DNA from: a virus
Taxonomy: Duplodnaviria > Caudoviricetes
IMG/VR virus record: IMGVR_UViG_3300041935_000004
Coordinates: 1-62,739 of that record
Reading direction: 5' to 3' (one strand)
DNA length: 62,739 nt
The notes under the pieces were generated by a model that was not told the DNA's origin, did not search any database, and saw only the letters and a list, made by a program, of their open reading frames with translations. Below are positions 8,987 to 62,739 of the stretch, piece by piece. The position numbers were made by a program, and so were the translations under genes. Position 1 is the stretch's first letter; each line of letters begins with the position of its first letter.

Positions 8987-9208
8987 GAGTTGCGAAGGGG
9001 TCAAATTCTGATACGCCTGCAACAGGCGGAGAAGGGGGGATGACGACGGAAAACCGCGCGGGAAAACGCGACTCGCCCGAACACTCCCGGGGCCATGACC
9101 TGCGACGATGTCACCAGACGATGACAGCGTGGGACGTCTCCACCGAGGTCTGCGCGTTTCCGCGTGTCGCCCTCTATGTCACGGTTCGCGGGGTTTACCC
9201 TCCCGTGC

Positions 9209-9442
9209 ATGCCAACGACGACGCTCTACTCCCCCGCCTGGTCGGACGCCCCCGCCCCGGCCCGAAATAGCTACGCGGTGCGCTACCGGCGACGAGGTAC
9301 CGAGGTCCAGCGCACCACCCCGGCCGGGGACGGCTGGACCACGTTCGCGGTCGCGGATGACACCGAGCACGCCGACTACATCGTCAAGTGCCTCAGCTTC
9401 TTCGCCCCGCACGAGACCTTCGACCTGGCGCAGAGCGCATGA
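9209..9442 (+). CDS. Hypothetical protein, possibly leaderless
   Basis: TACCCT 7 nt before the ATG; first gene of the rightward unit. Confidence 0.55.
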   Translation: MPTTTLYSPAWSDAPAPARNSYAVRYRRRGTEVQRTTPAGDGWTTFAVADDTEHADYIVKCLSFFAPHETFDLAQSA

Positions 9443-9675
9443 GCACCGGCTACCAGCGCCACCCCGACGACCTGCCACCGCGCCAGCCCGGGCGCGACGT
9501 GACGATGCTGCGCGGCTTCATCGGAGTGCTCATGCTCGGCATGGCCATCGCCACCGTGTTCATGTGGCTGTCCGGGAACACCAGCACCGGCGACGCGGTA
9601 GTTGTCGCGGTCGCCTGGGGGCTGATGGTCGCCGCCTACGTGATGGCCGGTCACCTGCCCCGGGCGCGTCGGTGA
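9439..9675 (+). CDS. Two-TM membrane protein
   Basis: Two hydrophobic segments; ATGA coupling. Confidence 0.7.
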   Translation: MSTGYQRHPDDLPPRQPGRDVTMLRGFIGVLMLGMAIATVFMWLSGNTSTGDAVVVAVAWGLMVAAYVMAGHLPRARR

Positions 9676-9694
9676 ACGCGACCCAGAGCCGCAA

Positions 9695-9880
9695 TTGAGC
9701 CCCTACAGGCGTCGCCGGCGCTCCGGGGGTGCGGACTTCTGCCACGACTGCCACCACGGTCACATCGCCCACCACGACGGCATCGGCAAGTGCTTCGGGG
9801 AACGGAAGTTCGCCGGGGAATGGGTCGACTGCCAATGCCCCCAGTTCGTGAAACCACCACCGGAGGATGAGGATGCGTAA
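9695..9880 (+). CDS. Small Cys/His-rich protein
   Basis: CHDCHHGH...H...C...CQC. Confidence 0.55.
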   Translation: MSPYRRRRRSGGADFCHDCHHGHIAHHDGIGKCFGERKFAGEWVDCQCPQFVKPPPEDEDA

Positions 9881-10121
9881 CCTCGGCCGGGGCATTGCCA
9901 CTGTGGACGTGGAAGCGATCAACGCCGCCCTCCACAACCAGCGCCTGGCCTACAACCTCTCGGGCATGGCCCCGCTGTCCGAACAGATGGGCATCGGGCG
10001 TAACACGTTGTACCGGATGGGCTACGGCATCCCGCCCGACGCCCAGAACCTCGCCGCGATCCTGTTCTGGCTGGGCGAACGCCAGTGGTGGATCAAACCC
10101 CGCGACGACCAGCCACAATAG
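9873..10121 (+). CDS. XRE/Cro-like HTH protein (repressor candidate)
   Basis: LSEQMGIGRNTLYRM...PDAQNLAAILFWLG. Confidence 0.75.
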   Translation: MRNLGRGIATVDVEAINAALHNQRLAYNLSGMAPLSEQMGIGRNTLYRMGYGIPPDAQNLAAILFWLGERQWWIKPRDDQPQ

Positions 10122-10305
10122 GCGCGCGCCGGGGTGGCGCGAACGCCTGTCAGCGTGAAAGAACAGACCCGGCGCGGGAAGGCACCGAGGGGGTTCTCGC
10201 ACAATCCCTCTTCCCGCGCCACCCTGCCCCCGCCGCCGGTGGGGCGCGGAGTTGTAGAAGGAAAACCACACCGGTCCGTCCGACCGCTCAAGGGCAACAT
10301 GACAC

Positions 10306-10480
10306 ACCCTCGGGGTTGCTGGGTTCAGGTATGGAACTTGCGACGCGGCCACCCCAGGGGTGAGCGGTCAACCAGCAAGGGCGTTGGGTCACACCGGCTC
10401 CCTACTGGTCCACACTGGGTGTAGTTCCATACCTTCTCGGCAGGCTCCGCGCATGGACGGTTCGATTCCGCCCGGGGGCA
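10306..10480 (+). ncRNA. tRNA/tmRNA-like structured element 3
   Basis: CCCUCG (10307-10312)/CGGGGG (10473-10478) stem; perfect 12-bp helix 10327-10338 with 10423-10434; T-arm GACGG-UUCGAUU-CCGCC with one mismatch. Confidence 0.55.
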
Positions 10481-10481
10481 C

Positions 10482-10814
10482 GTGGAAACGCTACGAAGCT
10501 GGTTCAACGGGCAGGACATCGAATGCCCCTACTGCGGCTCCCCGATCAACGCTCACGCGGAAGCAAAGAGGGCCGGGGGTTCACGCCCACCCCGCCCCGG
10601 GGACGCCTCGCTGTGCTCGCACTGCAAGGGCTTCGCGATCTACGAGGCCACCGACCCGTTCGGGACGAGCCTGGCCCTTCGCCCGCCCACGAAGAGTGAG
10701 GCCGGGGACATCGCCGCGCTCTACCCCGGCGTGGTCGGCGCTGTCCTGCCCGAGGTGAAAGCGCGACTGCGGGCGGCCGGCATCTACATCGAGCAGCCCC
10801 ACGAACGGGACTGA
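10482..10814 (+). CDS. Zinc-ribbon protein
   Basis: CPYC...CSHC. Confidence 0.7.
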   Translation: METLRSWFNGQDIECPYCGSPINAHAEAKRAGGSRPPRPGDASLCSHCKGFAIYEATDPFGTSLALRPPTKSEAGDIAALYPGVVGAVLPEVKARLRAAGIYIEQPHERD

Positions 10815-10815
10815 A

Positions 10816-10860
10816 AAGCGGCGGGGCCTGTGGGGTTACCAACCCCGGCCCCGCCGCTTC
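10816..10860. terminator. Hairpin between convergent units
   Basis: AAGCGGCGGGGCC / GGCCCCGCCGCTT inverted repeat. Confidence 0.75.
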
Positions 10861-10915
10861 ACCCGCAACCCCTGACTGACCCATCGCGTGTCTCAAGCGC
10901 GGTGAGCCACCCATT

Positions 10916-11077
10916 CTACCCGTCAAATTCTGCGTCCGCCTCGCCCAGGGCGTCGTCCCGCGCCTCCCGTTCACGCAACCTCAGCGCATGTTCCAGGATC
11001 GCCTGACGCACCTGCGGCGGCGTCCAGAACCCCGCCACGTACGCGTGCTGCTCCAACTCGCTCAGCGGCTCACCCAC
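10916..11077 (-). CDS. Hypothetical protein (53 aa, not in ORF track)
   Basis: Manual translation MGEPLSELEQHAYVAGFWTPP...; overlaps the upstream stop. Confidence 0.5.
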   Translation of the reverse strand: MGEPLSELEQHAYVAGFWTPPQVRQAILEHALRLREREARDDALGEADAEFDG

Positions 11078-11300
11078 GGGCCAGCTCCTTCACCAGATCC
11101 AGCATGCGGGTCGCGCCGGCCACCTGGCCCTGCGCCTTCGCGGTGATCTCCGCCCAGTCCGCCCGGGCGTCCTTGTCCCGACCGGCCCTCGCCGCATCCG
11201 CCTCAACCCGCTGGGCCTCAGTGCGGATCACGGTCAGCTGATCGGTCAGCCTCGGCAATAGCACGTGTGCCGCCCGCGCCTGCTCGGATAGTTGTCTCAT
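11070..11300 (-). CDS. Helical hypothetical protein
   Basis: ORF in operon. Confidence 0.55.
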   Translation of the reverse strand: MRQLSEQARAAHVLLPRLTDQLTVIRTEAQRVEADAARAGRDKDARADWAEITAKAQGQVAGATRMLDLVKELARG

Positions 11301-11583
11301 CGCTGCCCCCCAGCTCGATCACTGTCACAGTCCTGATATCCGCCCCGTAGCCGGCCAACCTATTAGCCCCCCGGGCCGCGGCGATCACGATCGCTTCCAT
11401 CGAGTCCATCGCCACGATGCCGTAGAGGGAAATCACGTGGTGGGTGGTGGTGTCCCCGTCGATACGCAACGCGCTGACGGTCGCCTCGAACCGCTTCGAG
11501 GCCGCGCCCAGCTCCGCCCGTCGGCGCTCGTCCCACACGTCGTCAGCCGGGCTCAACGGGTACGCCTCGTGGTCCTCGCTCAT
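11218..11583 (-). CDS. Hypothetical protein
   Basis: ATGA coupling. Confidence 0.55.
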   Translation of the reverse strand: MSEDHEAYPLSPADDVWDERRRAELGAASKRFEATVSALRIDGDTTTHHVISLYGIVAMDSMEAIVIAAARGANRLAGYGADIRTVTVIELGGSDETTIRAGAGGTRAIAEADRSADRDPH

Positions 11584-11810
11584 TCCATCTTCTCGATCCG
11601 CTGGAAGGTTTCCTGCTCCCCGTTCCACGGCCCGAAGTCGGTCAGCGTCAGGTTGTGCAGTGTCGAATCGGGCATCATCTCTTTGCTTCTCATGATCGCG
11701 ACCATCGCAGCGTCCTGATCGTCGGCTGCCGTGTAGTCGCACCGGAGCGTGAACGTCTCCCCGTCGGGCCTGATCCGGATCACGTCGACCTGATACTGAC
11801 GGAGTTTCAT
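11580..11810 (-). CDS. Hypothetical protein
   Basis: ATGA coupling. Confidence 0.65.
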   Translation of the reverse strand: MKLRQYQVDVIRIRPDGETFTLRCDYTAADDQDAAMVAIMRSKEMMPDSTLHNLTLTDFGPWNGEQETFQRIEKME

Positions 11811-12349
11811 TCCATCAACTCCGGCCGGGGGTAGGCGGCGACACGTTCCCGGATCGATTCGTCCACCGGCGTTTCCTGCGTGTGGACGACGTCCCCGGCT
11901 TTCACCAGGACGTCGGTGATCGCCCGCACCAGAATCCGATGGCCGAACACCGCTTCGCCTTCACTGCGATAGCGGGCCTGAAAATGACCCAGGTCGTTCC
12001 CTATCGCGATCCGGTTGGTGTCGCCGAAGATCATCGTCTCCCAGAACACGCCCAAGTTCTCGCCCCAGCCCATGTCGGTCACTAGGTGCACCGTGGACGC
12101 GCGGACGCAGTGTTCGTCCCACGACAACCGGGTGTACGCCACGTGCGGATCCAGCTGGCGGGCCTCGTCGTATTCACGGAAGGTACGCAGCCGTTCATGG
12201 GTGTAGGGGTGGCAATGGACCAGACCCGGGGACATCAGCTGCTCGGCTGGGTCAATGGATTGGTGCCCGTTGAGCCGGACGAGATGAAGGCCGGCCTCCG
12301 GGTCCGGGAGGTCAGAGTAGTCAGCCATTCCGTTCTCCGCGTAGCTCAT
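11807..12349 (-). CDS. Hypothetical phage protein (WETMIFG...RY...H motif)
   Basis: Long coupled ORF. Confidence 0.65.
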   Translation of the reverse strand: MSYAENGMADYSDLPDPEAGLHLVRLNGHQSIDPAEQLMSPGLVHCHPYTHERLRTFREYDEARQLDPHVAYTRLSWDEHCVRASTVHLVTDMGWGENLGVFWETMIFGDTNRIAIGNDLGHFQARYRSEGEAVFGHRILVRAITDVLVKAGDVVHTQETPVDESIRERVAAYPRPELME

Positions 12350-12764
12350 CCGTCGCCCATTCCTCCACCGGCTCAGCGTCAGGAAGATTCACATCGGCCA
12401 ACACCAGCGCCTCGCCCACGTGCGCGCAACAGGCTGGAATCAACATCAACCTGTCGCCCGGGGCGTTGCCGAACACAACGAATTCCGTTGGCTGCATGCA
12501 GGCGAGTCGGCTTACGCCGCCCCTGCCTTGGGGAACCCAGTCGCGGTCGACCCAAAAGCAGCGCACCGAATCGATTCGAGTGGGCACCCGAACAAGATTC
12601 AGGACAGGGAAGGGTCCGGCCGATAGTTCGCCTAGATGAAGCGTGGCCAGATCGATCTGCTGTTCGCGCCACGCTTCGGCATCGGGCACCGGGAGGGGCA
12701 CCGCCGGCATCTCAACCTGCGGGCCGGCGGTGAACGGTCGTAGGTATCGGTGACTGTAGGTCAT
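12321..12764 (-). CDS. Hypothetical protein
   Basis: First ORF of the leftward unit. Confidence 0.55.
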   Translation of the reverse strand: MTYSHRYLRPFTAGPQVEMPAVPLPVPDAEAWREQQIDLATLHLGELSAGPFPVLNLVRVPTRIDSVRCFWVDRDWVPQGRGGVSRLACMQPTEFVVFGNAPGDRLMLIPACCAHVGEALVLADVNLPDAEPVEEWATDELRGERNG

Positions 12765-12941
12765 GTTTGATCACGTGCGTTCACTTGCGCAACTCCCGAA
12801 CAGTTCCGGCTTCCGGTTCGACACGGCGTGTTGCGGGTCGGACTTTACCGGTGATGACGGCGGGCGACGGGGGATGTGGACGGGTGTCCGGGGCCAAAGC
12901 CGGAAAGAGCCGCACCGGGTGCGAGGCGTAGGTAACCGGGT

Positions 12942-13136
12942 ATGACCGAAACTCTTCTCAACTACAAGGAAGCAGCCGAGTACCTGGGCTGCAAGGTCGA
13001 CACCCTTCAGCGGTGGTCGGCACGCCACGACATCGAGCGGATCAAGTACGACAATGGGCAGGTGAAGTTCAAGCCAGAGTTCTTGAATGACTACATCGAG
13101 CGATGCCGCGAACCTAGTCGCTGGCAGCGGAAGTAA
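12942..13136 (+). CDS. xis: Excisionase (recombination directionality factor)
   Basis: LLNYKEAAEYLGCKVDTLQRW HTH; adjacent and convergent to integrase. Confidence 0.8.
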   Translation: MTETLLNYKEAAEYLGCKVDTLQRWSARHDIERIKYDNGQVKFKPEFLNDYIERCREPSRWQRK

Positions 13137-14352
13137 GACCCGTGACGTGGCGCACCAATCGGGCCAACGCCTCTGGGCTGACGTTTGAATAAGTCTTCAT
13201 CAGCTCGCTTTTCGAGTGACCGGTCTGTGCAGCCACGGCTTCGACCGGCACCTGCTCGTCACTGCTGCGCGCCCATTGCACGTAAGCGTGGCGCAGGTAG
13301 TGAGGGGTCGGTAGAAGGTCGGGTTCCAGCCACGCCAGATCCCCGGCCTCTACCGCCTTCTCCACGGCCTGCTTGAACTGGTAGCTAAATCCCCCGTGGG
13401 ACCATGCCTGTTCCGGGTACATCGGCGATCGAAACACCAAACCACGGCGACCGGTCTTCAAGATGAACTCGCGCAGCCTCGCAGCGAAGTCGGGGCCGAT
13501 GAGGACCATGCGAGGTTCTTTGTTCTTCGGCCGAGATCGGTGGCGGTTCCGCTCCTGCTCATAGATCGCCACACCGGCTACGCCCTCCACTGCGACCAGG
13601 TGTGTCGACTGGAACGCGATCATCTCCCCGAGGCGGCATCCAGTAAGGGCGAGGAATTCGATCATCAGCCGGATTTCTTCGGTGCGCCCGTGCTTGCGAA
13701 TGGCTAGGTACTGATCTTGCCGCATACCCCGCTCAGCGGCGCGACGCCGGCCGGCCGGTACGTCATAGCCGTACAGCGTGTCCAGGGGCAGCAGGCTCTT
13801 GATCATCGCCACCTTGATGACTTCGACAACGAACTGCATCGTGGTCCGGATGGTCAGTGGCGAGTAGGGCTTAGTCGGCACCGGCTTACCCCACAGGGCT
13901 TTCTTGAGCGCTTCCTCGAAGTCGATGATGAGGTCAAGGTCGACGTCCTTGACCGGGGTGTCGTACAGCGAGCGGCCAGCCTCTGTGAGGAACTTCGTGC
14001 GGTTCAACCGTTCGCGATTGGCGTCCTGCGAGTCATCCGTCATCCGCCGCGACTTGAATCTGATATGCCGTTCCGCGAACTCGCCAAAGGTCTCTTCCTT
14101 CACCACCATCGCCGTCGGACGCGGAGGGATCGTCACGTCGATCCGGTACTGCCCCGAAACAACGGCGTCATCGCCAGGCGATACACACGCTTCCCAGTGG
14201 TCTAGGTAGTCCTGAAACTTCCGCGCTTCGACATCGCTGAGAAACGTCTTCGCGTGAGTCCTGCGAGTCTCCCGGTTAGTCCAGCGGACACGCGGGTCCG
14301 CACCGTTCGGACGATCGACGTAGCTCCACTTACGCTTACCAAGCTTCGGCAT
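13114..14352 (-). CDS. int: Tyrosine integrase
   Basis: TGCRLGE (R), K in RPKNK, HYLRH, GH, TY; start MPKLGK at 14352 inferred. Confidence 0.93.
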   Translation of the reverse strand: MPKLGKRKWSYVDRPNGADPRVRWTNRETRRTHAKTFLSDVEARKFQDYLDHWEACVSPGDDAVVSGQYRIDVTIPPRPTAMVVKEETFGEFAERHIRFKSRRMTDDSQDANRERLNRTKFLTEAGRSLYDTPVKDVDLDLIIDFEEALKKALWGKPVPTKPYSPLTIRTTMQFVVEVIKVAMIKSLLPLDTLYGYDVPAGRRRAAERGMRQDQYLAIRKHGRTEEIRLMIEFLALTGCRLGEMIAFQSTHLVAVEGVAGVAIYEQERNRHRSRPKNKEPRMVLIGPDFAARLREFILKTGRRGLVFRSPMYPEQAWSHGGFSYQFKQAVEKAVEAGDLAWLEPDLLPTPHYLRHAYVQWARSSDEQVPVEAVAAQTGHSKSELMKTYSNVSPEALARLVRHVTGLTSAASD

Positions 14353-14359
14353 GACGTAC

Positions 14360-14600
14360 TTGCTCGCTCTCAAAACCGGAGTGGCGTGAACCCCGTACGC
14401 GTACTGGGGCCCAGCGAGCATAACAAAGATGCAGGTCAGAGCGGTCTTTAGGAGATCCAGTACATTTCCCATATAACCCAGTTTGACCTGCGGTTTTACG
14501 AAAGTGAAGATTGTGAATGTCGGAGTTATCCGGAGTTGTCATCAGCCGTTCGGACTAGTACGCAGCAGTTAGCCACCCAGTACGCGTACGCAGATTCTGT
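14360..14600. other. Probable attP region
   Basis: Non-coding, upstream of int; perfect 15-bp inverted repeat 14394-14408/14576-14590; GCAGGTCA/TGACCTGC pair; tandem CGGAGTTRTC repeats 14521-14540. Confidence 0.65.
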
Positions 14601-14632
14601 ATAGGACGGTCCACTCCGGAAGACACACACGA

Positions 14633-14680
14633 CAAAAGGGGCGCCGTCCCACCCCCCTCAGGATGGAACGGCGCCCCTCT
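14633..14680 (-). terminator. Intrinsic terminator
   Basis: AGGGGCGCCGT / ACGGCGCCCCT stem followed by a U-tract on the minus strand. Confidence 0.75.
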
Positions 14681-14693
14681 GTGGCAGCTGGCG

Positions 14694-14918
14694 CTAGTGC
14701 GTGAACGTCTCCCTGTCGGCCCGGTCCCTGGCCCGTTCGGTCCACTCCCAGATCCCGTACAGGGGGATGGAGACGAGGATGTAAGCGGCGACGGCGATAG
14801 GCCACGCGTAGTTGTCCACGAATAGCGCGATGGCGCCGATGATGAATGCCCCGGCGATGAACGTCAGTGCCATTCGTTGATGCCGCCAGGGCCGGTTGCG
14901 GGGGTTTCCGTTGCTCAA
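14694..14918 (-). CDS. Two-TM membrane protein
   Basis: Two hydrophobic helices. Confidence 0.65.
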   Translation of the reverse strand: MSNGNPRNRPWRHQRMALTFIAGAFIIGAIALFVDNYAWPIAVAAYILVSIPLYGIWEWTERARDRADRETFTH

Positions 14919-15235
14919 CGTCCACGCGCCGCCGCCGGACCACCGGCTTTGATGTGGAAGTCGTAGCTGGCGTCTCCGCGTTCCTCGGTGCGCCGCATGA
15001 CTTCCTGCGCGAATTCGGCGGCGTGCCGGCTGGCCACGTCCAACGCCGCGTCGATGATGACCGATTGGCGTGGCTGTATCTCCCGGCCGCTGGGCTCCAC
15101 GCGGTGGCAGCGCCGGCCGTGGAGATACATGCGTTCGGCTATCTTCCCCAGTCGGGTGCGCAGCGCCACGGTGATCTTGATTTGAGCGTCGGGCATGTCG
15201 CCGGCGCGTGCCGTCACGTCAGTTCCCCTTGACAC
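14915..15235 (-). CDS. Hypothetical, possibly ribbon-helix-helix-like DNA-binding protein
   Basis: IKITVALRTRLGKIA...QSVIIDAALD. Confidence 0.5.
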   Translation of the reverse strand: MSRGTDVTARAGDMPDAQIKITVALRTRLGKIAERMYLHGRRCHRVEPSGREIQPRQSVIIDAALDVASRHAAEFAQEVMRRTEERGDASYDFHIKAGGPAAARGR

Positions 15236-40307: not shown

Positions 40308-43300
40308 TCAGGACGTAGTCAGGGAGTAGAAGTAACGCGGGACGAACATGTATGGCGTCAACTGCGACGACGTCCACGAAATGGCCGCCGCCGATGTCGC
40401 GGTGCCAGCGTCGGCGCCGGAGTAGTAGATCGACGAAGAGCTGCTACCCAGGCCGCCGCTGGTCCACAAAGTGGGGTTGGCGTTAATCGTCGCGAGGGTC
40501 AGCGGCGGGGTGGGTATCCCCGCGTCGCGCTGGCTGGACAAGCCGCCCTGGGACGCGTTGGCCGACCAGCCGAGCAGCACCCAATACTGGGTGCCGGCCG
40601 TCAATGTCACGGACAGGCCGGTGATGGTCATCATCCCGGCGGCGTTGTAGTTGTACGACCCGAGGTAGCCGACCCGGACGAACTGCTGATTGGGGACGTC
40701 GATCGTGTAGAGGTTCACGTACCCGGTGACGTTCGTGTTGGGGCCGGTCACTGCGTTCAGCGACAACTGGGTCAGCGTGGCCGTCCTGGCGACTCCCAGC
40801 GGTGCCAGGATCGCCTGGCTGGCGGCGAGGGTGTTGGTCGACTGCTGAACTGTCGGCATGGGGTAGGCGTAGGAGCCGCTGACGTTCGGGATCGCGTACT
40901 GCCCGCCGCTGCTACCGGGCACGCTGACCACGTACGGCACGGCGGCGGTACCCGACCCGGTGATCGCGGCGTTGATCCCGGCGACAATCTTGGTTTCCGA
41001 ACCGTCGACGTTCGCCGAGCCGCTGACGGTCATGCCGTTTCCGGCGACGATGTTGTCTGTGGTGCCGTAGACGGTGACGGCGGTACCCGGACCGGCCGTG
41101 TACGTCCCGGTCGGAGTCGGGGCGACCGTGGCCGAGGTGGCGGCGTCAGTGATGTCGAAGACCGTCAGGAATTTCGGCGAAGCACCGCTGGTGTATTCCG
41201 ACCAGGTGAGGTTGGACTGCCAGCTGATCTTGACGGTGTAGACGCCGGTAGTGGCGCACGTGTAGGCCGGGCTTTGGCCTCGGGCGGTCACATAGCCGCT
41301 CGTCGTCGGCAGGCCGGTGCAACGGTCGAGGACGTTGCTGATCGTGGAGGTGGTGTCACCTGCACCGCTGGAAAGAGAGACGGTGATCTGGCCGAGGTTG
41401 CCGACGCTCGTGGTCAGGCCCTGTATCGACGAGCCGTAGGTGACGGCGTAGGTGCGTCCGGCCGTCATCGCCACGTTGATGCCGTACACGAAAGTCTCAG
41501 TGTTCGCCGCGACCGTCGCCGCGGAGTTGACGGTGCTGGACTTGCCCGAGGCCACGACGTACGCCCCGCCACCCGACCCACCGGTTCCGGCTGAGCCGTC
41601 GGCGCCCTTGGGGATGCCGAAGTTGAAGATCGCGGCGTTGCTGTTGCCGGTGTTGGTGACGGTCGCGGCTGAGCCGGCGGCCAGTGTCGTGGTGGTTCCC
41701 ACGGCGACGGTCGCGGCGGTTCCGGTGGCGCCGGCCGGCCCGGTGGCCCCGGTCGCGCCGGTGGTGCCCTGGGGTCCGGTGGAGCCAGCCGGGCCGGTCG
41801 CGCCGGTGTCGCCCTTGACGCCTTGGATGCCCTGGCTGCCGGTAGCCCCAGTGGCGCCCGTGGGTCCAGCGGTGCCAGTCGGTCCGGTCGCGCCCACAGG
41901 CCCCGTCGGTCCAGCTGCACCGTCGGCCCCGGTGGCGCCGGTGTCGCCCTTGGTGCCGGTGGGTCCGGCCGCGCCGGTCGCGCCAGTGTCGCCCTTGACC
42001 CCGGCCACACCTTGGATGCCTTGCGCCCCGGCGGTGCCGGTGTCGCCTTTGACGCCTTGGGCGCCCTGGGGTCCGACCGGCCCGGCCGGGCCTGCCGGGC
42101 CGATGTCGCCCTGGGGTCCGACCGCGCCGGTCGCCCCGGTGGCGCCGGTTGTTCCTGCTGCGCCGGTGGCGCCGGTGGGTCCTGCCGGGCCGGTCGCCCC
42201 GGCTACACCTGCGGTGCCGGGGTCGCCCTTGGGGCCGGGGTCGCCGGGATCGCCCTTGTCGCCCTTGGGGCCGGTCGCTCCGGTGGCGCCCACGCCCGCG
42301 TTGGACGCGGGCACCAGCAGCCCGCCGTCGGTGCCGAGTGCGGCGGCGTTCCCGGCGTCGGCCGAGAGTTTCACGTCGTACTTGCTGGAGGCGTATTTGA
42401 GTGTGGTCCCCAGCGCCCCGGTCACCGTGGTCAGGACGTCGGCGGAGCTGCCTGCGGCACCCGCCGGGCCGGTCGCCCCGGTGGGTCCGGCCGGTCCGGT
42501 GTCGCCGGTGTCGCCCTTGACGCCTTGGATGCCCTGGCTGCCGGTGTCGCCCTTGACGCCGGTGGCGCCGGTCGCTCCGGTGGGGCCGATGGCGCCTTGT
42601 GCTCCGGCCACGCCCGCGACGCCTTGCGGCCCGGTGAGACCGACGGGTCCTTGCGCGCCGGTCGTCCCGGCGGGTCCGGTCGCGCCGGTGGGGCCGGGTG
42701 TGCCTGCCGACCCGGTGGGGCCGGTCGCTCCTGCGGGTCCGGTCAGTCCGGTGTCGCCCTTGAGGCCCTGGGGGCCGGTGGATCCGGCCGGGCCGGTGGC
42801 GCCGAGCAGGCCTTGGGGTCCGATCGGGCCTTGCGCACCGGCCGGGCCGGTCGCCCCGGTGACCCCAGCGGTGCCGGTGTCGCCCTTGTCTCCCTTGTCG
42901 CCCTTCGGGCCTTGGGGACCTTGAACGCCGACGGTGTTGCCGTTGGAGTCCACGACGACCGACGGGACGTAGAGACCGTTGTCGCTGCCGTACTCGGCGC
43001 TGTTGTTCGCGTCCGAGGACAGCTTGACGAACAGCTGCCCGTTGGTGAATCCGAGACCGTTACCGGCGGCGTCTTCCAGGGACGCGCCCCCGCCGTCAGC
43101 CCCCAAGTCGGGCACGGTGGCCTGACCGGCGTCCAGCGCGACGTTGGCGGACACGGCCTTCATGTAGAGGCTGGTGACGCCCTCAGGCCCGTACACGTCG
43201 GGCATGTCGCCGCTGCGGTCCGAGCGGATCAGTGACCCGGGGATGACGCGTAGACCGTCGATGGTGCGGATGTCGGCCGGTGAATCGGTGTTCAGGTCGG

Positions 43301-43361
43301 TGTCGATCCGCACCTGCGTAAAGGGCGGAACGTCGGGCAGGCGGAAATACTTACGCGCCAC
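40308..43361 (-). CDS. Collagen-like fibre protein
   Basis: Two long Gly-X-Y tracts (GATGPAG, GDTG), beta-rich C-terminal domains. Confidence 0.9.
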
Positions 43362-50271: not shown

Positions 50272-51844
50272 CGTCCAGCCGTGCGCGCCAGGCCAGTACG
50301 GCGGCGACCGCCGCGTCGATCTTGTGCGGTGACTCGGGGAATTCTTTGGCGATCTGCATACCCGCGCGGCCCATACGGCGACGGGCGTTCAGGACGTGCC
50401 GGGTCAGGACCCCCGACCCGTCGTGGGTCATCTCCCGATGGACCACCGCGTTATTGAATTCCTCCAACGCGCGGACCATCTGGCTGGCCCGGCCGCCGGT
50501 CATCCACCATTCGCACGGGTGCGCGGCGGAGACCTTGATCTTCAGCTTCGGGTTGAATTCGGCCTCCCACGCGGAGACGAACCCTTCCCACCGGGCCGGG
50601 TCGGCGTACAGCCCGATCACGTGCCAGCGCCGGAACGCTTCCCGGATGGTGGCGTCCACGACGCTGGTCGGGACTTCCCAGTCGCGCCCGGCGGCACCCT
50701 GGGGCTCTTCCCACACCCCGACAGTGAACAGGTGCCCGTCGGAGACGCGCACGCCCATCAGGGCCGTCGCGTCGGTCGTGGAGTGGACGCGTTTGCGGGA
50801 GCCGTCGAAGCCCAGCACGATCGTGTCCCGGTCGGCGATGACCTTCGACGCGTCGGCGCAGCCGGCCCATTCCGGCTGCGAGAGCCAGGAGTCCGACGCG
50901 GCGGTGATCTGGTTGAGGTAGAACTGCCGGGCCGTTTCCGGGGGCGTGGACGGGTCCCAGATTTCGGCCATGATCCGGTCGATGTCGACCCAGCCGCCGG
51001 CTTCCGTCGCGGAGTCCCCGTAGGCGTAGATCAGTCCGGCTCGAAGCGAATCAACGTCTTCAAGGTCCGTGTCGGCGGGTGCTTCACGGTGGTCCCACAG
51101 CAGCCCGGATTCCCGCACTCGGCCTTCACGAATCGCAGCCGCATACTCCGCGGAACCTTCCGCCACAGAGTCAAGGCCCGGTACGTAAGCATTCGGAGCT
51201 TCAATGCTGCTACCCGAAGTCTTACCGAGGTTGCGGCGGATAGTCTGCGCCAGCCGGACGCCACCATTGGGCACTTTCCATTCTTCGGTCTGATCCAGGA
51301 TGGCGAAGATCGGGCGGTTACCCTCGCGCGAGGTCGCGGCGGACGTCACGAACTCGATCCGGCCGGTGGGCAGGGCGATGAAGCTCTGCATCGGGTCCAG
51401 CCCGGGATAGTTGTGGATCGCCGGGCCGCCGCGCAGCATCTCTAGCAGCGGCGCGTACGCGTTCTGGGTCTGGTCTTCCGAGACGGCAGCAATCTGAACC
51501 CAGGGAGTCCGGAGCGCCGCCCAGGGCTTACCAACAGGTTCTCCGTCGGCATCCCATCCATCGGGAACAACCGGTGCCAACGCTTCTGCTGCCGCAATTG
51601 CGCCCAGGAAAGGCGACTTCCCCGATCCCTTGGGACGCGAATAAACGGCGCGGCGGTAAAGCCGTTTTCCCGTAGCCGGCGAGATGGCATAGAAGTCATA
51701 CAGGAATTGTGCCTGTTCCCGGGTCGGGTAGAACGCCTCATACTCCGACCGGTCGGGCGCGGCGAGGTTCTCGATCATCCAATCCAGGACGACCGGCCCC
51801 AGCGTCGGGATCTCGCCCGGGACGCGGGGGCCGCGCCACGGCAC
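50210..51844 (-). CDS. terL: Terminase large subunit
   Basis: RPKGSGKS, QIAAVSEDQT, LGFDGS, KIDAAVA. Confidence 0.95.
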   Translation of the reverse strand: MPWRGPRVPGEIPTLGPVVLDWMIENLAAPDRSEYEAFYPTREQAQFLYDFYAISPATGKRLYRRAVYSRPKGSGKSPFLGAIAAAEALAPVVPDGWDADGEPVGKPWAALRTPWVQIAAVSEDQTQNAYAPLLEMLRGGPAIHNYPGLDPMQSFIALPTGRIEFVTSAATSREGNRPIFAILDQTEEWKVPNGGVRLAQTIRRNLGKTSGSSIEAPNAYVPGLDSVAEGSAEYAAAIREGRVRESGLLWDHREAPADTDLEDVDSLRAGLIYAYGDSATEAGGWVDIDRIMAEIWDPSTPPETARQFYLNQITAASDSWLSQPEWAGCADASKVIADRDTIVLGFDGSRKRVHSTTDATALMGVRVSDGHLFTVGVWEEPQGAAGRDWEVPTSVVDATIREAFRRWHVIGLYADPARWEGFVSAWEAEFNPKLKIKVSAAHPCEWWMTGGRASQMVRALEEFNNAVVHREMTHDGSGVLTRHVLNARRRMGRAGMQIAKEFPESPHKIDAAVAAVLAWRARLDAIAAGFGGPEVRRYAPKRIR

Positions 51845-52917: not shown

Positions 52918-53183
52918 CAGGCCTTGGGCTTGCTCTCACCCGGGGCGTGACCGGGCCGGGCGCCGGTGGCTTTCACGTGAAGGTTGGAGCACAGCCCCTT
53001 GACGTCGATCGTGGCCGGCACGTGCTTACGCAGCTCCACGACGCACCGGTCGAAGTCCCCATCGGTGCCCCAGCGAATTTTTGCCGCTCCAGCGCCCTTG
53101 GTCCAGTAGGACATGAGCCGCTGCGTACTGGCGACTTCGCCGGGCGTCTTCTCGACCACCAAATCACCCCCAGGCGATTTCAA
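52917..53183 (-). CDS. Hypothetical phage protein (WGTDGDFDRC motif)
   Basis: YWTKG.GAAKIRWG..GDFDRC...GLCSNLH; start may be GTG 53159. Confidence 0.7.
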   Translation of the reverse strand: MKSPGGDLVVEKTPGEVASTQRLMSYWTKGAGAAKIRWGTDGDFDRCVVELRKHVPATIDVKGLCSNLHVKATGARPGHAPGESKPKA

Positions 53184-53386
53184 TTGTCAAGCCAACACGC
53201 CGAATGAGTTAGAAAACAAAACCTACCGATGCGTACGCATGTCCAGCGCCAGGACGGGGCGGCGCGCTGGCTGGGGCCGGTGGGGGGTATGCCCCACTAT
53301 GTCCGTTTTGTGGTGATACATGCGTTATCGCCGTGATCGATAAACGGAGGATCGTTCCGCTTGCACGGAACCCACCGGCGACGGCG

Positions 53387-53593
53387 GATGCACGTGCAGA
53401 TGCACGTGATGGCGGGTGCACGTGCAGATGCACGTGAGGCAGCGTGTGCAAGTCAACCCGAGATATTGGACCGAGTCAAGTATGCACGTCCAGATGCACG
53501 TGCAGATGCACGTGCGTATGCACAATCGCTTCCGGCTTCGCTGGCTAGCCGAGTGAGCCCGCTCCAATGAGTGCACGTGCATATGCATATGAA
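53387..53593. repeat. Array of ~10 12-bp units GATGCACGTGCA
   Basis: Units begin at 53387, 53399, 53415, 53427, 53481, 53493, 53505, 53517, 53570, 53582; palindromic core TGCACGTGCA. Confidence 0.9.
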
Positions 53594-54607
53594 TTCAGCA
53601 CTCATTGTTGAATTGATATCGCTACATATTTGTGCTCACACCAAAGTTGCACAAAGTGTAGTTTTATTTTCTAGGACATGCGTTCTAAAAGCAGCTGCCA
53701 GGCAAGCGGCCCCAGATAGGCCCCCCGAAGGCCCATACCAGGGAATATGGGCAAAACGGACACGGGCTCAAGTTGGCATACCCCATAGGGGTACCAAAAT
53801 AGGACACAACGGACACGATTCAGCGTCCGTTCAATGCGTTATTGAGCGGTATGTCCGTTTCTCCCTCTGCGCTTGACCTGCGGAAACGGCACTCAGACGG
53901 CCGCTAGCGGCCTAACCCCCCGCCGGGGTGGAATCGGATGGGACGGCCACCGCTCGGCCGCGTGCGTGGATCAGACCCCTGTTTACGCGTGCCATATGGC
54001 GGGGGTATCTGGCACACCCACCAGCGACCCGGCGAAACCGGCCGATCAGCCCCCCTGAAATAGATCCACCCTAGGGTGTAGGCGGCTCATCTGTGAGCGA
54101 AATACTGTTTGGCGTGTTGGGCCGAACGGAACGGGCCGGAGCGAGAGACCAGGCAACCCGATCCACGTAGGCGCAGAAGTACAGGCGACGTCCTAGCGGG
54201 CCGGTCCTGGCAGCGCACGCACCTTGAGAACTCAATACTGATGCTGACCTCACCGCTGGCAAGACTCATTGCTAGATCGGGCACCGGCCGTCATGCGCAA
54301 TAGCAAACGCGCTAGCCGGGTATGGGCGATAACCAGAGACTGCACTTTGGAGTGCTCCCGATCGACGCGATTACCAGCGCGGTATGACACCAGTAGACGA
54401 AAGACACCCTAGACATTCTCTCCGACCCGATCGGGTCGACTTAGGACACCTAGATGGGTCCTACCCATGGTGCCGACCCTGCCCTATCACTGGACACCGG
54501 CACGCATGACGTAGCTCCCATCGCCTAGTCCTAGGCCGATACCGATCGGGTCGGCGGAGTGTGCCTACGGCACCCCCACGTACCCCACTCACAGCAAGGA
54601 GACTTCT

Positions 54608-62581: not shown

Positions 62582-62739
62582 CGCGCTCCGCAGGTGCGGC
62601 AGCCGGGGCAGTCGCCCACGTGGGTTTCTTCGTAGATCAGGCGGACGCGCTGGGCTTCGGACTCGGGGAACACCGGGTTGTCCTGGGAGTGGTAGACGGT
62701 TCCGCAGTGGCCGCAGCGCACGGTCAGGCTCCAGTCGTT
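62582..62739 (+). repeat. Terminal direct repeat, right copy
   Basis: Matches 1-158 with one mismatch. Confidence 0.97.

Follow-up and report, generated by a model that had tools for sequence, protein, structure and literature searches.

The present analysis concerns a spacer of 360 nt (positions 10122-10481, plus strand) in the IMG/VR virus record IMGVR_UViG_3300041935_000004. The window, i.e. the whole stretch of DNA that was analysed, is this complete record of 62,739 bases with a content of guanine plus cytosine (GC) of 61-73%. The spacer is non-coding and helix-rich, lies within a row of genes on the plus strand and ends in a piece resembling the 3' end of a transfer RNA (tRNA). It is preceded by a small open reading frame (ORF) of 84 amino acids (9867-10121, GC at codon positions 1/2/3 of 0.62/0.44/0.88, codon score +0.38) and followed by an ORF of 110 amino acids with a CxxC...CxxC pattern (10482-10814, GC at the third codon position (GC3) 0.85, codon score +0.16), both on the plus strand. 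In contrast to these flanking ORFs with their positive codon scores and GC3 values of 0.85-0.88, the GC of the spacer is flat over the three codon positions, and its codon score is negative in all frames on both strands. The ORF 10134-10424 (96 codons) was rejected as a gene with a codon score of -0.38, and ORFs 10085-10363, 10022-10300 (minus strand), 10325-10519 (minus strand) and 9651-10352 (minus strand) were ruled out by codon statistics as well. As far as the sequence can tell, none of the overlapping ORFs, whose translation would speak against the structured RNA postulated at this place by the initial annotation, is therefore a translated gene.

The large terminase of the phage is 57% identical to those of the Streptomyces phages SF1, SF3 and VWB and matches 2042 records, the top ones being phages of Mycobacterium, Gordonia, Streptomyces and other actinobacterial hosts. 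A tyrosine integrase (Pfam PF00589, PHROG integrase) is encoded on the minus strand at 13114-14472. Judging from this terminase kinship, the integrase and the soil-metagenome source, the phage is probably a temperate actinophage from soil with a host from the phylum Actinobacteria.

The tRNA-type 3' end is formed by the 22-mer GGTTCGATTCCGCCCGGGGGCA (10459-10480, plus strand), which comprises the T-loop, the 3' strand of the T-stem, the 3' acceptor strand and the discriminator A. Among one genome each of 185,579 species, 33 exact matches of this 22-mer were found. All 11 loci that were checked lie in tRNA-Phe or tRNA-Arg at the position from T-loop to discriminator, and the identity between window and tRNA ends there within 0-2 bases on either side. 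The module is certainly a tRNA-like 3' end. It is followed by CG, not by CCA, and a single base separates it from the GTG at 10482, which is the only in-frame start of the downstream ORF after the TAG at 10422-10424. The GGGGG that had been noted shortly ahead of this start codon is indeed present at 10474-10478 and stops 3 nt before the GTG. In our judgement, the G-run is too near to the GTG, and the ORF at 10482 thus lacks a properly spaced Shine-Dalgarno sequence.

The acceptor strand can pair with a distant or with a local 5' strand. The distant partner (10225-10232, plus strand), a U at position -1 followed by GCCCCCG, forms a perfect acceptor-like 8-bp pair with 10473-10480 and is part of the minimum-energy fold of 10222-10484. 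It gives a canonical stack of 7-bp acceptor and 5-bp T-stem with a U at -1 in a 255-nt fold shaped like a transfer-messenger RNA (tmRNA). The local partner yields a tRNA-like minihelix of 37 nt (10444-10480, plus strand), which is matched over its full length by the covariance model R1 described below. Its acceptor-like stem of 5 bp (10444-10448/10475-10479, one G·U) is followed by a 5-nt bulge and a T-stem of 7 bp (10454-10460/10468-10474, one A·C mismatch, one U·G), which carries the T-loop UUCGAUU (10461-10467); A10480 is the discriminator. No other such tRNA-like piece exists in the genome, where the next R1 match scores 16 bits. A metagenome contig of 42% GC was seen to carry, at about 590-630, an acceptor/T-arm hairpin that has no bulge and shares this T-arm down to the A·C mismatch; its stem GAGACTAT...ATAGTCTC is followed by CA and a terminator-like hairpin.

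The helix content of the spacer is beyond chance. Its perfect Watson-Crick inverted repeats of at least 8 bp have lengths of 12, 11, 10, 9, 9, 8, 8 and 8 bp. After dinucleotide-preserving shuffling (n = 1000), a repeat of at least 12 bp was present in 8 shuffles and two repeats of at least 11 bp in 1, and five repeats of at least 9 bp, as found in the spacer, did not occur at all (0/1000; shuffle mean 0.40). Within the genome itself, 5 of 520 overlapping 360-nt segments match or exceed these five repeats. The minimum free energy calculated by RNAfold for the spacer (-174.4 kcal/mol) was equalled by none of 100 shuffles (-160.2 +/- 5.4 kcal/mol, z = -2.62).

Directly behind the upstream ORF, the segments 10125-10141, 10168-10181 and 10210-10224 are mutually complementary, and their three pairings exclude each other. 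The second and third segment form a hairpin of 11 bp (10171-10181/10210-10220) with an inner 7-bp stem (10189-10195/10203-10209) and a probability of 0.88-0.99, which is the stable member of this three-way alternative. In the inverted-repeat scan, the third segment also pairs with the first one over 10 bp (10132-10141/10215-10224). Both rival partners that the initial annotation had assigned to 10210-10225 are hence present; the 9-bp pairing of the first with the second segment (10125-10133/10168-10176) had not been described there.

Further downstream, two more of the previously noted complementarities were found again, i.e. a perfect 12-bp inverted repeat (10327-10338/10423-10434), the arms of which enclose 84 nt (about 85 had been given), and a 9-bp helix (10282-10290/10361-10369; pair probability 0.3-0.99), which encloses a hairpin at 10306-10361. 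In the ensemble of the full 360 nt, this 9-bp helix and the 11-bp hairpin 10171-10220 are near certain. By contrast, the 12-bp helix would cross both the 9-bp helix and the 3' strand of a long irregular helix (10244-10272/10418-10452). Its probability among nested folds is accordingly 0.00, and it could form only in a pseudoknot or in an alternative fold. The long helix, a thermodynamic prediction only, includes an 8-bp pair (10244-10251/10445-10452) and carries two arms, the 9-bp helix with hairpin 10306-10361 and a hairpin at 10371-10409. In nested folds it is this helix that takes the place of an anticodon arm, so that the role of a tmRNA helix P2 equivalent, previously given to the 12-bp helix at this position, does not hold. 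The unconstrained minimum of 10222-10484 amounts to -125.0 kcal/mol. In this stretch, enforcing the distant acceptor (10226-10232/10473-10479) together with the T-hairpin costs 0.0 kcal/mol, and the local tRNA-like hairpin costs +6.9 kcal/mol. Whether the 12-bp repeat belongs to a conserved or mobile element was examined by scanning IMG/VR. This returned 7 contigs of one AT-rich phage family, and since these have no homology to the window, the shared 12-mers were taken as coincidence. In the AT-rich phages, the same 12-mers pair the ribosome-binding region with codons about 30 positions downstream and may form a translational hairpin.

Relatives of the region were searched for on several levels. 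Comparison with 50,697 phage records by blastn gave no match of the spacer at an E-value of 1e-5 and only matches of 25-39 nt at E up to 10. Locus searches guided by both neighbouring proteins and the integrase yielded no relative of the region, and tblastn of the integrase against phages gave no match. In metagenome scans, a 29-mer covering the junction had 0 matches, and a 20-mer holding the odd T-stem had 7, the flanks of all of which are unrelated. No relative of the 322-nt body or of the neighbouring proteins was found in the collections searched. The upstream ORF has no match in Pfam and PHROGs, and its own entry is the only match among 5.8 billion protein clusters; the previous labelling of this gene as XRE could therefore not be confirmed. 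No Pfam or PHROGs family was found for the downstream ORF either, and the protein-cluster search returned only its own entry. No promoter-like site was found in the window, nor was a terminator-like site found on the plus strand.

Several of the 25-39-nt matches from the permissive blastn search with the region are unannotated intergenic stretches that match its 3' end. They occur in the Mycobacterium phages LittleCherry and SWU2 and the Gordonia phages Morgana and Cafasso. In these genomes they follow closely upon a stop codon, on the coding strand, and the complementary 5' strand is located about 10 nt upstream of the T-arm. ARAGORN does not predict a tRNA at these loci in the four phages. 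A pattern scan of IMG/VR identified 115 loci and, with the four phage-record loci, 121 matches were available, of which 48 overlap tRNAs predicted by ARAGORN and 73 do not. A common fold of 42 nt is present in 35 of the 73 non-tRNA matches (25 of these unique). It consists of an acceptor-like stem of 5 bp, a 5' bulge of 8-12 nt (GAUGGUCGCA-type, GG conserved), a stem of 7 bp, a UUCGANU loop, a continuous 3' strand of 12 nt and an unpaired A, and it has no encoded CCA. Some of the other 38 non-tRNA matches read as tRNA 3' fragments of the type found in phage attachment sites (attP), two of them being identical to the VWB core. In Rfam 15 there is no family for the 42-nt element, and no description of it was found in the open literature (subscription journals lay outside the search).

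The covariance model R1 was built on an ungapped seed of 14 sequences; its E-values are rough. Compensatory changes are found at 4 of the 12 pairs of the seed, and the 99.4% of paired cells follows from its construction, because the seeds were picked for perfect pairing. Copies that were not picked for pairing keep the helices as well, with compensatory variants such as GCUCG/CGAGC and GUGGGGG/CCCCCAC; those of Cafasso also show occasional mismatches. R1 detected one copy each in LittleCherry and SWU2, 7 in Morgana, 8 in Cafasso and 5 on one IMG/VR contig. All 8 copies in Cafasso are intergenic, lie on the strand of the flanking genes and begin 0-37 nt past a stop codon, seven of them within 12 nt. 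In the annotated stretch of this genome, which holds 7 copies, 6 start no more than 12 nt past a stop codon and one at 37 nt, and all 7 end 35-118 nt before the next start. The elements, 7-8 per genome, punctuate consecutive small early genes in Cafasso (76,000-82,600) and Morgana (68.5-81.4 kb). A zinc-ribbon gene that follows one of the Morgana elements was considered as kin of the downstream gene of the window and rejected, as the two have no similarity.

When R1 was applied to the window, it matched 10444-10480 over the full length with 30.5 bits (E about 1e-4, rough), as compared to 30.0-70.2 bits for accepted copies and 29-35 bits for 3' pieces of tRNAs. The 3' half of this match is circular evidence, because the family was found through that half. 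The candidate copy in the window has the 7-nt UUCRANU loop, the 12-nt 3' strand and the unpaired A of the element and likewise no CCA (10461-10480, then CG). In its stack of 5 + 7 bp, one of the 12 positions is an A·C mismatch; the other 11 pair, including two wobbles. The candidate also shares the location between genes on the sense strand, but it lies 1 nt before the next start, whereas the Cafasso copies lie 35-118 nt before theirs.

R1 furthermore picks bare T-arm hairpins near the right ends of the mycobacteriophages L5 and D29. These belong to a tRNA-like cloverleaf of 93-110 nt in Cluster A mycobacteriophages, which consists of an acceptor GGGUAG/CUACCC, a D-like arm, a long anticodon-like arm, a T-arm and a discriminator A. 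RNAalifold analysis of 15 unique IMG/VR copies gave 35 pairs, 14 of them with compensatory changes. The cloverleaf is unannotated in the phage records, and Rfam gives only tRNA-Sec matches below threshold. Based on R1 and reading of the fold, it is located on the minus strand at 51,226-51,134 in L5 (93 nt) and at about 9975-10085 of the D29 stretch analysed. A weaker copy of the small element (23.9 bits, longer bulge) was seen on the minus strand of L5 at 50,426-50,472 in the spacer between genes 88 and 89, directly followed by a TTGACAGCCACC site and then by gene 88; we take TTGACAGCCACC in this spacer to be the Cluster A stoperator motif.

The position of the cloverleaf in L5 can be compared to a published transcript. 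The Pleft RNA of L5 is an abundant, stable RNA of about 500 nt that starts at 51,672 and is toxic to M. smegmatis, and the peak of the transcript ends near 51,133 (Dedrick et al. 2017, PMC5712189). The authors call it unclear how the 3' end of this RNA is defined and see no evident canonical terminator (PMC5712189). The end of the Pleft RNA appears to coincide with the discriminator of the covarying tRNA-like fold (51,134 versus about 51,133). This coincidence is the nearest thing to experimental support for the processing mechanism proposed below. Like the spacer described here, the Pleft RNA of L5 and D29 is a phage non-coding RNA of a few hundred bases that ends in T-arm, acceptor and discriminator A before the next gene. 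Unlike the window, L5 has a four-arm cloverleaf of 93 nt with strong covariation as its module, and its RNA has its own promoter as well as evidence from Northern blots and RNA sequencing (PMC5712189). For the window, no promoter-like site was found, and it has no sequence similarity to the L5 module.

We tentatively favour the reading that the region is a t-element-like processing signal, which would cap the upstream RNA and release a nearly leaderless messenger RNA (mRNA). Processing-dependent control of the downstream gene had been among the options raised by the initial annotation and is, with the same reserve, preferred here as well. According to this reading, the spacer would be transcribed together with the plus-strand gene row as a folded non-coding RNA, the last 25-37 bases of which would imitate the top half of a tRNA with T-arm, acceptor stem and discriminator A and without encoded CCA. 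Host RNase Z would cut at A10480 or one base after it; RNase P might cut before G10226 or G10444, and the CCA-adding enzyme possibly acts too. Through the 3' cut, the upstream RNA would obtain a tRNA-like end resistant to exonucleases, and at the same time a message starting with C10481 or G10482 would be freed, i.e. a GUG mRNA that is leaderless or has a one-base leader. A leaderless GUG mRNA would fit the gene at 10482 because of the missing Shine-Dalgarno sequence at a proper distance, and leaderless messages starting with GUG or AUG are common in mycobacteria. Since the three-way pairing starts 4 nt past the upstream stop codon, one may speculate that it links folding with the translation of that ORF. 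For the window, we infer transcription, the choice of the 5' partner, cleavage and the effect on translation.

The model for this reading are the t-elements of plant mitochondria, which share a GGTTCRANYCC arm and at which cuts by RNase Z and RNase P define mRNA ends (Forner et al. 2007, PMC1920247). One of the mRNA 5' ends made in this way is located at +2 of the start codon (PMC1920247). In the window, this T-arm motif is represented by GGTTCGATTCC (10459-10469), with 10225-10232 or 10444-10448 as acceptor partners, between ORFs on the same strand. Such tRNA-like structures without a cloverleaf, with the T-arm motif and an acceptor-like stem, are part of mRNA precursors in the plant case and would be so in the window. 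Unlike the window, which stems from a probable actinophage, the plant t-elements are organellar and their ends were mapped experimentally (PMC1920247). A further difference is that the tRNA-like stub of the window closes or follows a structured domain of 250-320 nt. Many mycobacterial tRNAs are without encoded CCA (PMC10673834). RNase Z presumably handles the precursors of such mycobacterial tRNAs. The 3' end of a long non-coding RNA is also made by tRNA-processing enzymes at a tRNA-like module in the case of MALAT1/mascRNA; this system differs from the window in that it is eukaryotic and nuclear, that RNase P makes the end of the long non-coding RNA and that the tRNA-like piece is released.

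A number of observations weigh against this processing signal. The T-stem of the local minihelix contains the A·C mismatch, and its bulge, GCGCA, has only 5 nt and is without the GG-containing motif of the family. The copy of the window lies on the coding strand, but 322 nt past the real stop codon at 10119-10121; a nearer TAG at 10422 closes a frame without coding signal. Of the 12 matches that scored below 36 bits when 81 sources were searched with R1, 5 were pieces of ordinary tRNAs. In the full 360-nt spacer the tRNA-like folds cost +5.9 kcal/mol (distant) and +11.0 kcal/mol (local), and T-hairpin and acceptor are absent from the minimum fold, with a probability of at most 0.05. No relative of the region was present in the collections searched, and hence its helices are without support from covariation. 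The only sequencing run that contains the phage is soil metagenome DNA. Finally, a message with a one-base leader or a 5'-monophosphate end may be translated poorly.

Among the alternative explanations, those that start from the tRNA-like sequence itself are a tmRNA and an attachment site. The initial annotation had described a mini-tmRNA-like domain. As in tmRNA, acceptor and T-arm form a domain in the predicted fold that is closed by both RNA ends, the anticodon arm is replaced by a long helix, and pseudoknots would be possible. This topology is isoenergetic in 10222-10484 and, as it costs 0.0 kcal/mol there, thermodynamically reasonable, whereas any kinship with tmRNA is not supported. ARAGORN detected 0 tRNA or tmRNA genes in the window and no cloverleaf with D-arm and anticodon arm. 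Rfam gave no match at the gathering threshold, and no family of the tRNA clan or of tmRNA is among the matches listed at E up to 10; the tmRNA model RF00023 had 0 matches in the window at E up to 10, and in the control genomes it matched in 14 of 14 cases. The sole sub-threshold Rfam match in the region, Plastid-ycf2 on the minus strand (18.5 bits versus a cut-off of 65.7), covers only the reverse complement of T-arm and acceptor strand. Charging of tmRNA with alanine needs a G3·U70 wobble in the acceptor. The third acceptor pair of the window is C10228-G10477 with the distant partner or U10446·G10477, of reverse polarity, with the local one, and neither is G3·U70. None of the peptides that precede the stops at 10300, 10361 and 10422 (...SDRSRAT, ...ATRPPQG and ...GPHWV) ends like an alanine-rich or hydrophobic tag. 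With these defining features refuted, it is extremely improbable that the fold of about 255 nt serves trans-translation as a miniature tmRNA or as some other tRNA mimic that can be charged. The attachment site has to be taken seriously as a rival: the phage is temperate, and 10459-10480 is its only tRNA-like piece. In this case, the tRNA-like 22-25 bases would be the core of attP, recombined by the tyrosine integrase (13114-14472) with the 3' end of a host tRNA gene, and the upstream helices would be incidental or a protein-binding architecture. Identity to tRNAs begins only within the T-stem, as in attP cores, and VWB, a relative by its terminase, has an annotated attP of tRNA-Arg type finishing with ...CGGGGGCA (AY320035.2), like the window a tRNA 3' end in a temperate actinophage genome. 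However, the VWB core, which is flanked by direct repeats, immediately adjoins int and extends over 45 bp as far as the anticodon loop, whereas the window has about 23-25 bp, located 2.6 kb and five small ORFs away from int. Scattered two-copy repeats of 8-22 nt are all that is found around 10459-10480, where sets of direct repeats are missing, and a contig of the source run spans the site unbroken, without a joint or loose end at 10458-10480. Furthermore, none of the 33 exact matches of GGTTCGATTCCGCCCGGGGGCA is titled actinobacterial (exact 22-mer, species representatives only; the host is not identified), and the actinophages with 7-8 similar intergenic modules demonstrate that such pieces need not be attP. 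Arm-site-type tandem direct repeats (14521-14540) are instead present in the spacer upstream of int (14473-14640). The stretch 14473-14700, which contains tandem CGGAGTTATC/CGGAGTTGTC units, two copies of GTACGCAG and a terminator-like hairpin at 14637-14678 (18 nt, 89% complementary), is in our view the likelier place of attP. We therefore consider an attP core at 10459-10480 unlikely.

As a further alternative, the region might be a cis-acting translational or attenuation switch that needs no cleavage, in which competing helices would govern transcription or folding and the locking of the G-run and the GTG in the acceptor helix. The three exclusive perfect pairings of 9-11 bp just past the upstream stop codon, the acceptor 3' strand (10473-10480) adjoining the start codon, the competition of the 12-bp helix with the 3' strand of the long helix and the five perfect repeats of at least 9 bp, not reached in 1000 shuffles, are all in line with it. 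Yet no riboswitch or leader family was matched in Rfam, the hairpin 10171-10220 is not succeeded by a U-tract, a plus-strand terminator-like site or a leader peptide with coding signal was not found, and neither were relatives that would show the alternative pairings to be conserved. A switch also leaves the exact tRNA end of the 3' strand unexplained, and we regard it as rather improbable. The same grade applies to a decaying relic, i.e. a tRNA-like element or tRNA 3' fragment plus spacer left behind by mosaic recombination and without present function. The degenerate state of the local hairpin (A·C mismatch, two wobbles, a 5-nt bulge instead of 8-12 nt, no GG motif), the orphan nature of the region and both flanking genes and a mosaic joint just past the upstream stop codon, as marked by the divergence of a source-run contig at 10138, would all be expected for such a remnant. 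A spacer under drift would not be expected to hold a surplus of long perfect helices. Besides, the 22-mer has kept its exact identity to a tRNA end as well as a distant partner that pairs perfectly over 8 bp, and the downstream gene has no other start.

Beyond the window, the processing signal might be part of a more general 'tRNA punctuation' in actinophages, which we put forward as a rather unlikely idea. Mimics of the tRNA top half, ranging from hairpins of 42 nt to modules of 100-250 nt, would be cut and capped by host RNase Z, together with RNase P or the CCA-adding enzyme, and would thus set the ends and the stability of phage RNAs. In the window, one cut would cap an RNA of about 360 nt and yield the leaderless GUG mRNA for the orphan zinc-ribbon protein, and the same logic would apply to the 3' end of the L5 Pleft RNA. 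Should the stub truly act as a processing signal, actinobacterial phages would borrow the tRNA maturation enzymes of their host to shape transcripts, which is documented for organelles and one mammalian long non-coding RNA and was not found for phages in the literature searched. It would also show how a gene without a ribosome-binding site gets expressed, namely via a leaderless mRNA, and would provide a concrete and cheap test for the origin of the 3' end of the very abundant early RNA of L5 and D29. With respect to annotation, an isolated tRNA 3' end found in a temperate phage is not necessarily an attP site, and tRNA finders and Rfam overlook a recurrent class of phage RNA modules.

The spacer lies among small ORFs that follow each other on the plus strand (9164-10814) and are closed off by a perfect 13-bp hairpin at 10816-10859, which was found in the inverted-repeat scan between ORF 10482-10814 and the minus-strand ORF 10916-11077. 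This hairpin faces convergent minus-strand genes and is likely a two-way terminator closing the plus-strand unit.

Bases 1-158 of the record recur at 62582-62739 with 99% identity as a terminal direct repeat of 158 nt, and the contig therefore closes on itself. The record is flagged as linear and 84% complete; the repeat ends rather look like a closed circle or a terminally repeated genome. One contig of the source run agrees with the window up to 10138 and then differs for 255 bases. The stretch 10687-15007 including the integrase is present on a separate contig (contig borders 10677-10687 and 14980-15007) with a depth of 7.8 versus 10.3. Both patterns suggest mosaic variants that occur together.

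The densest perfect inverted and direct repeats of the genome are located at 53160-53760, with as many as 13 inverted repeats (9 bp or longer) per 360 nt and tandem GCAGATGCACGT-type units; this stretch may be an operator array or an origin. Finally, 16 in-register copies with a 9-nt periodicity were observed at 41720-42940 inside a minus-strand ORF of 1017 codons (40308-43361), which suggests a collagen-like protein with Gly-X-Y repeats, probably a tail fibre.

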